Positions 52,267 to 55,730 of a stretch of 64,000 nt of DNA are shown piece after piece. A program made the position numbers and the translations under genes. Position 1 is the first letter of the stretch; every line of letters starts with the position of its first letter. The notes beneath the pieces are model-generated. The model saw only the letters and a program-made list of their open reading frames with translations, made no database searches and was not told where the DNA came from. The stretch covers positions 22,798 to 86,797 of the forward strand of contig CAJUGE010000011.1 in assembly GCA_910586295.1 (NCBI GenBank). The letters are read 5' to 3'. This stretch comes from an uncultured Bacilli bacterium. Lineage in GTDB: Bacteria; Bacillota_I; Bacilli_A; RF39; UBA660.

Positions 52267-53997
52267 ATGAAAGAGTTTCTAACCAACATAAAATTCGTAT
52301 TGGCTTACACTAAAGGTCAAAGATTAAAAATACTATGTGTATCAATTCTAAATATAGTAGGAGTGTTCCTATCAGTAGTTAGTCCAATAATAGGTGCAAA
52401 AGTTATAATGAATATTACCAACGAAAATTTATCACAACTATTTTTAATGGCCATATTTATGTTAATATTAGGTATCGTAGAAAACTTACAAATGTTCCTA
52501 GCACAAACATGTAGTTATATCTCTTTTAGAGAAACATTCAACAACATGCAAATTAACCTAGGCGAAAATATATTACAATTAGAAAATAAAGTATTTGACG
52601 AAAATGGCTCTGGAGTATTTATGGAAAGATTAACAGGCGACACAAATTCTCTAGCAACGATATTCAATTCTCTTAATTCCAATATATTTGGAATAATAAG
52701 TAAAATCGGAATATACATAGCAATATTCTATATAAGTAAAACTATATTTTTTGTTACAATAATTATGGTAATCATAAGATTTTTAATAGAAAGAAAACGT
52801 GCAAAACTAGTAAATGAGAAAGATAAAGAAAGAAGGAAAAATCAAGAAAAGCTATCAGGCTTTGTAGGAGAGCTAGTTAGAGGAGCTAGAGATATCAAAA
52901 TGTTAAATACAGAAAAAACATTCACTGATGAACTAGAAAAAAGAGCAAGTACTGTCAATAAATCTGAATATGAACGCTCAAATATAACAAATAAATATTA
53001 CCTTTTAAGAAGATTTGTAAGAGACTCTATGAATTTAATTCTAATTGTATTATGTGTAATATTAATAAAAAATAAAATACTTTCACTTGCCTCTGCCATA
53101 ATTATATATAACTACTCTTTTAAAGTCTCAGGAATAGCCGAAATGGCAGGCAACCTTATAGATAGAATAAAGAATTTTAATTTATCATGTTCAAGAATAA
53201 TTGCCTTAACATCTAATAAAGAACTTAAAAAGGAAAATTTTGGTGCAACTCACCTACCTCACATTAATGGAAACTTTGAATTTAAAAATGTTCACTTCTC
53301 TTATGGAAAAGAAAAAGTCCTTAAAGGAATAAACTTCAAAGTAAATGCAAACGAAACAGTAGCGTTCGTAGGAAAAAGTGGAGCAGGAAAAACAACTATA
53401 TTTAACTTACTATGCAAAATGTATGAACCACAAAAAGGAACAATAACAATAGATGGAAAGAATATAAAAAATTTAGACAAAGACACTATAAGAGGAAACA
53501 TAACAATAATAAGTCAAAACCCTTATATTTTTAACATGACAATAAGAGAAAACTTAAACCTAGTAAAAGAAGACTTAACAGAAAATGAAATGATAGAATC
53601 ATGCAAAATTGCTTGTCTTCACGATTTTATTATGACATTAGAAAATCAATATGACACAGTAATTGGTGAAGGTGGAGTGAATTTAAGTGGTGGACAAAAA
53701 CAGCGTTTAGCAATAGCAAGAGCCCTAATTCAAAAAACAGAAATAATACTATTTGACGAAGCAACCTCTGCTTTAGATAATGAAACCCAAGAATTAATTC
53801 AAGAATCTATAGAAAACATGAAAGGTAAATATACAATATTAATAATTGCGCATAGATTATCAACAATAAAAAATTCAGATAAAATAATATTCATAAATGA
53901 TGGTATTGTAGAAAAAGTTGGTACACACAAAGAATTACTAAAAGAATGTCCAACCTATAAAAACCTATATAAAACAAAAATAAGAAATGAGGAATAA
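52267..53997 (+). CDS. ABC exporter, fused permease/ATPase (576 aa), subunit 1 of a tandem pair
   Basis: Six TM helices then Walker A GKSGAGKTT, LSGGQKQRLAIARA, Walker B ILFDEATSALD. Confidence 0.85.
   Translation: MKEFLTNIKFVLAYTKGQRLKILCVSILNIVGVFLSVVSPIIGAKVIMNITNENLSQLFLMAIFMLILGIVENLQMFLAQTCSYISFRETFNNMQINLGENILQLENKVFDENGSGVFMERLTGDTNSLATIFNSLNSNIFGIISKIGIYIAIFYISKTIFFVTIIMVIIRFLIERKRAKLVNEKDKERRKNQEKLSGFVGELVRGARDIKMLNTEKTFTDELEKRASTVNKSEYERSNITNKYYLLRRFVRDSMNLILIVLCVILIKNKILSLASAIIIYNYSFKVSGIAEMAGNLIDRIKNFNLSCSRIIALTSNKELKKENFGATHLPHINGNFEFKNVHFSYGKEKVLKGINFKVNANETVAFVGKSGAGKTTIFNLLCKMYEPQKGTITIDGKNIKNLDKDTIRGNITIISQNPYIFNMTIRENLNLVKEDLTENEMIESCKIACLHDFIMTLENQYDTVIGEGGVNLSGGQKQRLAIARALIQKTEIILFDEATSALDNETQELIQESIENMKGKYTILIIAHRLSTIKNSDKIIFINDGIVEKVGTHKELLKECPTYKNLYKTKIRNEE
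53224..53600 (+). repeat. Direct repeat copy A (NBD-coding, about 375 bp, about 95% identical to 54958-55334)
   Basis: Long near-identical nucleotide runs between the two ABC genes (e.g. aaatgttcacttctcttatggaaaagaaaaagtccttaaaggaataaacttcaaagtaaatgcaaacgaaacagtagc). Confidence 0.8.
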
Positions 53998-53999
53998 AG

Positions 54000-55730
54000 A
54001 TGAAAGAATTTTGGAAAAACATTAAACTTACTTGGAAATATACAAAAGACCAAAAGACAACTCTTATAAAATACATAATTGTAACAATACTTAATATTAT
54101 AGTCGCTCTTTTAATTCCTATTTTATCTGCACAACTAATACTAAAACTAACTAATAACCAATTATATCAACTTATATTTATAGGATTAATAATATATTTA
54201 GTTGAAAACATTTACAATATAATAAGCTACTTATCTACAAGATATTATCAAATAATAAGAAGAGAAAGTTATACAAGAATACAAAAAGATTTAGGAAGCA
54301 ATATTTTAAATTTAGAAGTGGAAACATTAGATAAAAATAGTTCTGGAGTTTTCATTCAAAGACTAACTAGAGACACAGAAGAATTATCAATAATTTTTAA
54401 TGAAATAATATATAAACTAGATAATTTAATAACTAACATAAGTATCTTTCTCGCAATATTTATAATTAATAAAATAGTGTTTATTTATCTTATATTTATG
54501 ATACTTGTATTGTATCTTATAGAAAAGAGAAAATTAAAAAAGATAAACGTTAAAGACAAAGAGTTTAGAGAGAAAAATGAGAGAACAACTGGTTTTATTG
54601 GAGAATTAGTTAGAGGTGTAAGAGATATTAAAATGCTAAATTCTGAAGATAGTTTTATGAACGCTCTTAAAGCAAACATAAAAGATACCAATAAAACAAG
54701 ACACGAACTTCAAAGCATATACAGAGTATACTTTTATATATCATCTAATATTAAAGATTTAATGTATTGTATGTTATTAATATTATTTATACTATTAATA
54801 AAAAGTAACAAATTATCTGGAGCTAATGCTTTAATCATATATAATTTTAGTGAAAGAGTTTTATCAGTTTTATATAGTATAAGCAGTATTCAAAAAAGAA
54901 TAAAATCATTTAACTTATCTTGTAAAAGAATTTATGAAGTAATAGATAGTGATAAATTTAAAAAGGAAAACTTTGGTACAACCCACCTACCCCACATCAA
55001 TGGAGATTTTGAATTTAAAAATGTTCACTTCTCTTACGGAAAAGAAAAAGTCCTTAAAGGAATAAACTTCAAAGTAAATGCAAACGAAACAGTAGCATTC
55101 GTAGGAAAAAGTGGAGCAGGAAAAACAACTATATTTAACTTACTATGCAAAATGTATGAACCACAAAAAGGAACTATAACGATAGACGGAAAGAATATAA
55201 AAAAGTTAGACAAAGACACTATAAGAGGAAACATAACAATAATAAGTCAAAACCCTTATATATTTAACATGACAATAAGAGAAAACTTAAACCTAGTAAA
55301 AGAAAACTTAACAGAAAATGAAATGATAGAAGCCTGCAAATTAGCATGCTTACATGACTACATAATGACTTTGCCAGATAAGTATGACACAGCAATTGGT
55401 GAAGGTGGAGTAAACTTAAGCGGTGGACAAAAACAACGACTAGCAATCGCAAGGGCATTCGTCCAAAAAACAGAAATAATATTATTTGACGAAGCGACTT
55501 CTGCACTAGATAACGAAACACAAGCCCAAATACAAAAAGCGATAGAAAACATGAAGAAAGACTACACAATACTAATAATCGCCCACAGACTATCAACAAT
55601 AATAAATGCAGATAGAATACTATATATAGAAGATGGAATTGTAAAAAGTGAAGGAACACACAAAGAACTATTAAAAAACTGTGAAAGCTATAAAAAGCTA
55701 TATAAAAGTGAATTAAAAAATAGAAAGTAA
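54000..55730 (+). CDS. ABC exporter, fused permease/ATPase (576 aa), subunit 2 of a tandem pair
   Basis: Same architecture and exact length; TMD about 40% identical to subunit 1, NBD about 90% identical. Confidence 0.85.
   Translation: MKEFWKNIKLTWKYTKDQKTTLIKYIIVTILNIIVALLIPILSAQLILKLTNNQLYQLIFIGLIIYLVENIYNIISYLSTRYYQIIRRESYTRIQKDLGSNILNLEVETLDKNSSGVFIQRLTRDTEELSIIFNEIIYKLDNLITNISIFLAIFIINKIVFIYLIFMILVLYLIEKRKLKKINVKDKEFREKNERTTGFIGELVRGVRDIKMLNSEDSFMNALKANIKDTNKTRHELQSIYRVYFYISSNIKDLMYCMLLILFILLIKSNKLSGANALIIYNFSERVLSVLYSISSIQKRIKSFNLSCKRIYEVIDSDKFKKENFGTTHLPHINGDFEFKNVHFSYGKEKVLKGINFKVNANETVAFVGKSGAGKTTIFNLLCKMYEPQKGTITIDGKNIKKLDKDTIRGNITIISQNPYIFNMTIRENLNLVKENLTENEMIEACKLACLHDYIMTLPDKYDTAIGEGGVNLSGGQKQRLAIARAFVQKTEIILFDEATSALDNETQAQIQKAIENMKKDYTILIIAHRLSTIINADRILYIEDGIVKSEGTHKELLKNCESYKKLYKSELKNRK
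54958..55334 (+). repeat. Direct repeat copy B (see 53224-53600)
   Basis: Same as copy A; offset 1734 bp, equal to one gene length. Confidence 0.8.

Follow-up and report, generated by a model that had tools for sequence, protein, structure and literature searches.

Background

ATP-binding cassette (ABC) exporters are usually classed either as homodimers or as asymmetric heterodimers, and the route that leads from one to the other is debated. In the homodimeric MsbA, Sav1866 and LmrA/BmrA, a polypeptide of about 575 residues carries a six-helix ABC_membrane domain followed by a C-terminal canonical nucleotide-binding domain (NBD). The heterodimeric LmrCD, BmrCD, EfrCD and PatAB are specified by adjacent, co-oriented half-transporter genes, and in exporters of this kind one of the ATP sites is, as a rule, degenerate and non-catalytic and the NBDs have diverged. 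The present report concerns a tandem pair of half-transporter genes, abcA (52267-53997) and abcB (54000-55730), both on the forward strand of a 64-kb stretch of DNA from an uncultured Bacilli bacterium (contig CAJUGE010000011.1, assembly GCA_910586295.1), which is referred to below as the window. The two genes share a near-identical tract within their NBD-coding regions, and their transmembrane domains (TMDs) are deeply diverged, both from one gene to the other and between strains of the species.

The encoded proteins have the domain order and length of the MsbA-type homodimers, and the full-length AlphaFold2 (AF2) model of AbcA could be superposed on MsbA/Sav1866-type structures with a TM-score of 0.84-0.86. 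Unlike those exporters, the locus specifies two paralogues whose TMDs are 38% identical. In having adjacent, co-oriented and tightly spaced genes it resembles the heterodimeric TM287/288 and TmrAB, which were also among the best structural matches, but both of its NBDs are canonical and, overall, 85% identical to each other. The peptide exporters PCAT and ComA/BlpA begin with an N-terminal C39 peptidase, a domain that AbcA and AbcB do not have.

Concerted evolution of bacterial paralogues through gene conversion is known from tufA/tufB and the rRNA operons. As in those cases, the paralogues at this locus are closer to one another than to their orthologues and have homogenised silent sites, and this is seen in more than one lineage. 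Here, however, homogenisation is limited to one domain, while the other is anciently diverged and dimorphic within the species. Specificity loci with a hypervariable core include the staphylococcal agr groups, the pneumococcal comCD pherotypes and the rat TAP2 'cim' alleles, the last of which belong to an ABC half-transporter. By analogy, the abcA-abcB locus may be likened to these, having discrete deep classes in one species, near-identical flanks and breakpoints at domain borders, but it lacks any associated signalling peptide, sensor or known substrate.

Full-text literature searches brought up no report of gene conversion confined to the NBDs of bacterial ABC exporter pairs, nor of NBD concerted evolution combined with deep dimorphism of both TMDs within a species. 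A study of bird ABCG2 tested for conversion and found none (PMC7362505), and a term search of a survey of gene conversion in 26 prokaryotic genes turned up nothing on ABC transporters (PMC6053082). The processes involved (gene conversion, concerted evolution and mosaic alleles) are known; for the domain restriction combined with TMD dimorphism no earlier account could be found.

The near-identical tract

The abcA and abcB genes are of equal length (576 codons each), as the initial annotation of the window had stated, and their products align with 0 indels; the gap between them is 2 nt (TAA-AG-ATG) rather than the 3 bp given there. The in-register nucleotide identity was about 56% over the first 930 nt, rose to 96-98% and then fell to about 76-78%. 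A three-segment maximum-likelihood fit of the abcA/abcB mismatches placed the tract at 53225-53598 in abcA (+ strand, gene nt 959-1332, codons ~320-444) and at 54958-55331 in abcB (+ strand), in register and 1733 nt downstream of the abcA copy. These limits agree closely with the near-identical segments previously picked out at 53224-53600 and 54958-55334. The copies differ at 15 of 374 nt (96.0% identity), compared with mismatch rates of 43.8% to the left and 23.7% to the right, and their longest stretch without a difference is 77 nt (53365-53441 and 55098-55174).

Mapped onto the AF2 model, the tract encodes the linker from transmembrane helix 6 (TM6) to the NBD, strands beta1-3, Walker A and its helix, the Q-loop and the first helices of the helical subdomain, and it ends before the signature motif. 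The earlier figure of about 95% identity for the NBD-coding halves was thus right for approximately the N-terminal half of the NBD and wrong for the C-terminal half, containing the signature, Walker B and the H-loop, which is 76% identical in nucleotides and 74% in amino acids. The TMD parts are 56% identical in nucleotides and 38% in amino acids, close to the 40% originally estimated.

The silent sites distinguish the tract from the rest of the pair. Synonymous and nonsynonymous divergence, calculated as Nei-Gojobori pS and pN, was about 0.16 and 0.017 in the tract, 0.63 and 0.39 in the TMD and 0.59 and 0.14 in the distal NBD, so that identity is not uniform along the genes and homogenisation is confined to the tract. 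When only degenerate codons specifying the same amino acid in both genes were considered, 107/117 (91%) were identical in the tract, 60/96 in the distal NBD and 62/118 in the TMD (0.53-0.62 for the two flanks). The fraction expected from codon usage alone is 0.57. Fisher tests gave p = 3e-7 for the tract against the distal NBD and p = 1e-11 against the TMD. Since codon choice outside the tract is as random as codon usage predicts, the duplication is old, and the homogenisation of synonymous sites in the tract alone points to gene conversion that occurred far later than the duplication. Conservation across 32 homologues from other species was 0.85 for the C-terminal part of the NBD and 0.81 for the tract region; protein constraint is not the cause, because the equally or more conserved distal NBD has remained unhomogenised.

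Two near-identical open reading frames (ORFs) of 66 aa lie on the minus strand within the tract copies (53301-53501 and 55034-55234). Most likely they are not genes and simply result from the repetition of the tract.

Recurrence in other strains and lineages

Retrieved loci and contigs are designated by L-numbers (L001-L098) and retrieved proteins by P-numbers. The alleles found in the window are called type 1, consisting of A1 (abcA) and B1 (abcB), and were also assembled in L001, L093 and L094, whereas L002, L089, L090 and L091 carry type 2 alleles, A2 and B2. A homologue scan with one genome per species yielded 80 loci from gut 'Bacilli/Tenericutes' metagenome-assembled genomes (MAGs). The window's own species was not among these representatives, where the best match was 60%. 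The gene was single in about 73/80 of the other genomes, and close tandem pairs were present in few. The single-copy relatives presumably work as homodimers.

Where pairs were profiled (L002, L089, L005 and L007), NBDs 91-100% identical stood beside TMDs 41-73% identical in nucleotides. The type 2 pairs contain exact in-register repeats of 437 nt (L002) and 403 nt (L089), followed by 83-98% identity to the end of the gene. In the L005 pair, with TMDs 47-68% identical, the NBD is about 100% identical up to the stop codon, including 659 nt without a difference; in the L007 pair NBD identity is 74-99% and the exact repeat is 110 nt. Every tract starts near the TMD/NBD junction, while the far limits differ by lineage. 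In neighbour-joining trees, the TMDs clustered by gene type, on very long branches, and the NBDs by genome or lineage.

The type 2 strains allowed the relative age of the exchange to be assessed. Between L089 and L002, the tract contains 12 sites that are strain-specific and shared by the paralogues, as opposed to 2 that are paralogue-specific, while the corresponding counts in the TMD are 0 and 388. The ratio in the tract implies that conversion postdates the split of these strains. The gene conversion or concerted evolution of the ATPase portion suggested in the initial annotation was borne out by the homogenised silent sites, by this recurrence and by the discordant NBD and TMD trees.

The direction of the exchange in the window can also be surmised. 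The remaining C-terminal part of the abcA NBD (53599-53994, + strand), encoding the signature, Walker B and H-loop, has an old A1-specific sequence that is 76-79% identical in nucleotides to all other NBDs of the species and its sister species. In this distal region B1, A2 and B2 are mutually 92-93% alike and only the window AbcA stands apart; most probably, therefore, a B-like sequence replaced the original tract in abcA.

Two TMD classes within one species

The initial annotation missed a second feature of the locus, that both TMDs exist as two deeply divergent classes within the species. The nearest abcA relative fetched, in L002, is only 68% identical in amino acids to the window AbcA, yet the spo0A, gpmI and P-loop flanks are 99-100% identical, with 4401 nt at 99.5%. 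The flanks of L089, L090 and L091 are likewise nearly identical to the window (the right flank of L089 over 3.8 kb at 99.2%), and pS between type 1 and type 2 flanks is 0-0.03. Within the genes, by comparison, the A1 and A2 TMDs are 55% identical in amino acids with a pS of 0.57, and B1 and B2 are 51% identical with a pS of 0.56, both saturated.

A profile of type 1 against type 2 (the window compared with L089 and L002) began at about 90% over 52037-52430 and dropped to 50-76% in a hypervariable block at 52430-53230 (+ strand), corresponding to the TM helices of AbcA. It recovered to 96-98% in the abcA tract and was 75-89% from there to the end of the gene. A further hypervariable block at 54000-54900 (+ strand), covering the AbcB TM helices, was 52-78% identical and was followed by the abcB tract at 96-98% and by 84-100% until the end of abcB. 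From about 55800 the identity was 97-100%, with a dip to about 85% in the short spacer before a DUF6624 gene.

The classes are discrete. Among the 227 retrieved homologues used for this comparison, identity was 97-100% inside a class and no more than 73% to anything else, and none of them came from a donor lineage for either class. Searches with the TMD alone returned mostly protein fragments and a single informative match, P0121/L097, from a sister species. Within the allele classes pN/pS was 0.07-0.27, indicating purifying selection on each class and ruling out current diversifying selection inside them. The flanks of L097 are 87% identical to the window in nucleotides, with a pS of 0.51-0.56, and its TMD is of the A1 type, with a pN of 0.165 to A1. 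Since the pN between A1 and A2 within the species is 0.29, larger than that to the L097 orthologue, the allele split predates speciation. The congeners L092 and L095 have one ABC gene at the same site, yet with other TMD classes. Judged by these comparisons, two TMD classes of each gene, ancient and evidently functional, coexist in one species, type 1 being roughly three times as frequent as type 2 by contig counts (3:1). Balancing or frequency-dependent selection may lie behind the dimorphism, with import from an unsampled lineage as the alternative.

The allelic differences are spread across the TM helices and not concentrated in the short extracellular loops, and consequently lend no specific support to a reading in terms of phage or antibody evasion. 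Conserved islands occur at aa ~115-132 and ~196-218, by or over the coupling helices (107-113 and 207-212), and a third spans ~303-330.

Exchange between strains and species

The NBDs have also been exchanged between genomes. Genes of the B1 type carry many NBD mosaics upon a TMD that is 98-100% identical, and one of these, P0016, found in five contigs, has an NBD with type 2-like patches. Within the class, the pS of the B gene is 0.21 in the NBD and 0.03-0.06 in the TMD. Two loci from different species, L005 (1500-4068) and L007 (~4350-6916), are 93-99% identical over a stretch comprising the upstream NBD and all of the downstream ABC gene, even though their flanks are about 80% and their upstream TMDs 59-73% identical. 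The left breakpoint of the shared block is at the TMD/NBD junction, and the block looks like a recent inter-species transfer.

Two short public metagenome contigs, L096 (JGI 3300006168) and L098 (ERZ13410410), change haplotype within the tract. L096 (1-2418) contains a B2 TMD, a switch to the A1 C-terminal part of the NBD and then B1, with the switch occurring within 56 nt or less, at gene nt 1206-1263. L098 (1-4691) reads A2 TMD, tract, A1 NBD C-terminal part and B1 TMD, tract, A2 NBD C-terminal part and B2; it has a coverage of 4.4x and would encode an array of at least three genes. These contigs may be real unequal-crossover products or misassemblies of mixed strains and were counted as neither. 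As direct proof of crossing-over they were set aside, the contigs being short, the coverage of L098 low and mixed strains possible.

Origin of the tract

Taken together, an old tandem duplication followed by NBD-restricted gene conversion, with continuing concerted evolution, very probably explains the pair. The tract would have arisen by non-reciprocal homologous recombination between the two NBD-coding regions, as one episode of this continuing evolution. The conserved NBD motifs would maintain the nucleotide identity that seeds RecA-type recombination, and recombination would in turn reinforce that identity. In the TMD, conversion or exchange would be blocked by missing homology, by selection for distinct TMD specificities or by both, and the tracts would stop at the domain border. 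The observed recombination breakpoints are concentrated at this border and inside the NBD. In type IV exporters such as Sav1866 and TM287/288 the second coupling helix docks on the partner's NBD; the conserved islands at the coupling helices (aa ~115-132 and ~196-218), in combination with a homogenised NBD, may keep all TMD/NBD combinations compatible.

Several observations weigh against this explanation or limit its reach. Between the window and L093, the tract has 0 sites shared by the paralogues of one strain and 10 paralogue-specific sites, so the tract of the window is not fresh. 'Ongoing' conversion holds for the type 2 haplotype and L005, not for the window strain, in whose haplotype the event appears to be older. 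The 100% identical NBD repeats come from short-read MAGs (L002, L089 and L005) and may be slightly inflated by bubble collapse. The strain-specific sites shared by paralogues could arise in the same way, yet L089 and L091 agree independently. The TMD branches of the trees are, as mentioned, very long. Finally, part of the NBD similarity, as the mosaics and the L005/L007 block indicate, is clearly due to import from other strains and species and not to intragenomic conversion.

If such import were the main source of the likeness, and copying from paralogue to paralogue a minor one, the NBD mosaics on nearly invariant B1 TMDs, some of them type 2-like, the excess of NBD over TMD pS inside the class and the 93-99% block of L005 and L007 between ~80% flanks would all be accounted for. 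Import alone cannot, though, equalise the two paralogues of one genome, as seen in the exact repeats of 403-437 nt in type 2 and 659 nt in L005, nor does it account for the 12 tract sites at which the paralogues of each type 2 strain agree with one another. Import as the principal cause is consequently considered unlikely; intragenomic conversion and import probably operate together. A recent tandem duplication with very fast divergence of the TMD and distal NBD, the tract being the part that had not yet diverged, was one of the two origins entertained in the initial annotation. It would suit the equal lengths, the absence of indels, the tight spacing and the preponderance of single-copy relatives. 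It is very improbable, being contradicted by the codons outside the tract, whose identity matches that expected by chance (0.53-0.62 against 0.57, pS ~0.6), a randomisation of silent sites that positive selection acting on the protein could not produce; moreover, relatives of the A-type and of the B-type TMD are each found in further strains and species, and the limits of the tract are abrupt.

Preservation of the tract in the absence of recombination, by purifying selection, codon usage or an embedded element such as an internal promoter or antisense RNA, could be argued from its content, since it encodes Walker A and the Q-loop and both copies contain the same 66-aa antisense ORF. This can hardly be the explanation when the distal NBD is equally or more conserved but unhomogenised, when 91% of codons are identical and 57% are expected, when no Rfam family is present and when the exact tract varies in length from 110 to 659 nt and extends to the stop codon in L005. 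Similarly, the possibility that an assembler collapsed, duplicated or chimerically joined a repeat is raised by L096 and L098 (the latter at 4.4x), which switch haplotype exactly within the tract, as misassembly through a shared repeat would. Very little credence is given to an artefact of this kind, given that the window copies differ at 15 sites and have no exact run longer than 77 nt, so that ordinary reads distinguish them. In addition, the A1-B1 arrangement was assembled independently in L001, L093 and L094, which makes such an error unlikely for the window, and A2-B2 in L002, L089, L090 and L091.

A bolder and, on present indications, doubtful extension of NBD-restricted conversion is that the NBD tracts serve as portable homology arms, in a register of 1733 bp, of a RecA-driven cassette system that re-assorts TMD modules under frequency-dependent selection. 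If this were true, TMD modules would swap between gene positions and haplotypes and the array would grow and shrink by unequal crossing-over. L096 and L098 would then be real recombinants and three-gene arrays, not misassemblies, and the selecting agents would be toxins, phages or host factors acting in a gut commensal population.

The exporter subunits

Both proteins were recognised by Pfam as ABC_membrane (PF00664; E 1e-21 for AbcA and 9e-16 for AbcB) and ABC_tran (PF00005; E 5e-34 and 9e-34, respectively), and phmmer gave E-values of 2e-130 to ABCB1 and 5e-70 to MsbA. The TMD of AbcA covers aa ~1-320 and the NBD aa ~330-576. The AF2 model of AbcA (pLDDT 88.6) consists of six long TM helices (19-51, 55-103, 115-156, 158-205, 216-268 and 274-315), with short coupling helices at 107-113 and 207-212, and an NBD; the protein begins directly at the elbow helix/TM1. 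Foldseek matched the model to TM287/288, MsbA, Sav1866, TmrAB and the PCAT1 core with TM-scores of 0.84-0.88 and E-values of 4e-36 to 1e-32. In NCBIfam, the MsbA equivalog TIGR02203 scored 301-316 bits, below its cutoff of 602, and no equivalog was approached by either protein. By sequence and model, AbcA and AbcB are thus best described as ordinary exporter half-transporters of the ABCB/MsbA type (type IV fold). The matches of the ABC proteins in PADLOC (mad3 and mad8) were generic NBD matches and were not taken as a defence role.

Both subunits carry GKSGAGKT (Walker A), SQNP (Q-loop), LSGGQKQR (signature), ILFDEATSALD (Walker B) and AHRLST (H-loop). Because the catalytic Glu (D-E-A), the H-loop His and LSGGQ are retained in each, neither ATP site is degenerate. 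The abcA start at ATG 52267 is preceded at 6 nt by AAGGAG (52255-52260) and is, for this reason, likelier than the alternative in-frame ATG at 52243. The Shine-Dalgarno sequence of abcB, GAGGA (53989-53993), also 6 nt ahead of its ATG, is located in the last codons of abcA. This position and the 2-nt spacing suggest that the genes are translationally coupled.

The predicted coupling and the linkage of A1 with B1 and of A2 with B2 incline us slightly towards a symmetric heterodimer of AbcA and AbcB with two active ATP sites. Alternatively, the canonical sites in both subunits and the existence of single-copy relatives are compatible with two homodimers, which the proteins may form instead. Obligate pairing is further called into question by L090 (3330-5049), where abcA is frameshifted into ORFs of 205 and 363 aa and abcB is intact, which hints that abcB can function in the absence of abcA or that the locus is decaying there.

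Genomic neighbourhood

A role in the export of, or immunity to, an antibiotic or bacteriocin had been proposed for the pair from an AT-rich upstream region and a P-loop kinase-like gene downstream, with the remark that no precursor peptide gene was found. That remark was correct. The spacer at 51965-52266 (+ strand), the likely promoter and 5' untranslated region between the gpmI side and abcA, contains only ORFs of 20-43 aa, mostly with non-ATG starts, none with leader features. Its base composition is simply typical of a genome with 27% GC. A promoter and terminator scan was at background (42 promoter-like sites where 34 were expected and 1 terminator where 1.1 was expected), and no Rfam family reached the gathering threshold anywhere in the window. 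Pfam detected no C39 peptidase domain in either protein, and the bacteriocin exporter model TIGR01193 of NCBIfam scored 220-226 bits, far below its cutoff of 524.

The downstream gene (55742-56296, + strand) is co-oriented, begins 11 nt after abcB and encodes a 184-aa P-loop NTPase with only weak matches to AAA_14, nSTAND3 and PRK06762. It is intact in the window, L001 and L002, but in L089-L094 it is reduced to ORFs of 49 and 68 aa (L089, 8743-9297), and appears to be decaying in part of the species. A scan of metagenome contigs with the protein found six loci (L083-L088) at about 62% identity, in another species and without an ABC neighbour. The P-loop gene is therefore not a conserved partner and is dispensable, and with neither a C39 domain nor a credible precursor ORF the proposed bacteriocin or antibiotic-immunity role is unsupported. 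Beyond the genus, no neighbour was held in common with the window; the orthologues sit among unrelated housekeeping genes and give no clue to the substrate.

The pair lies in a strain-variable, defence-island-like segment, extending from gpmI to a TehB-like methyltransferase and the S10 operon and containing PDC-S01 candidates, which is not distinct in composition. In the window, a split, N-terminally truncated AAA_14+DUF4143 gene (57101-57274 and 57375-58301; PADLOC PDC-S01, E 2e-96) is flanked by two DUF6624 paralogues (56417-56989 and 58330-58899) that are about 67% identical in nucleotides; the copy number and neighbours of DUF6624 vary from strain to strain and among sister species. In type 2 strains the spacer is interrupted at about 52017-52034 by another PDC-S01 (AAA_14/DUF4143) gene, a different, intact paralogue of 439 aa (E 7e-155) located between gpmI and abcA (L089, 3781-5100). 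A radical-SAM gene that weakly matches viperin (pVip) is also present in these strains and missing from the window. In the sister species L092 (6184-6840) and L097 (2450-3103) a SIMPL (DUF541) gene stands between gpmI and a single ABC gene, at the site of the spacer or PDC-S01 insertion of the window species.

Elsewhere in the window, a 330-aa ORF between tpi and spo0A (47506-48498), without a Pfam match, is conserved in every examined strain of the species. The window also contains a Spo0A gene, and public MAG records label relatives of the lineage 'Tenericutes/Mycoplasma sp.'. No tRNA gene was found in the window, which includes the start of the S10 ribosomal-protein operon.

Implications

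Exact NBD repeats of 400-660 nt at a distance of 1.7 kb are liable to mislead short-read metagenome assemblers and strain-resolved analyses alike. The warning in the initial annotation that the repeat is a likely site of recombination or misassembly was justified, since the haplotype changes within the NBD repeats in at least two public contigs (L096 and L098).

With regard to the family, the locus represents an intermediate state, a duplicated homodimeric exporter in which the TMDs have specialised and the motor domains have been kept from diverging by recombination. Homogenisation of the NBD would keep both ATP sites catalytic and all combinations of TMD and NBD compatible. With regard to the organism, dimorphism of both TMDs is the type of signal given by specificity and recognition loci, and makes the pair a candidate determinant of ecological differences at the level of the strain in this gut lineage.

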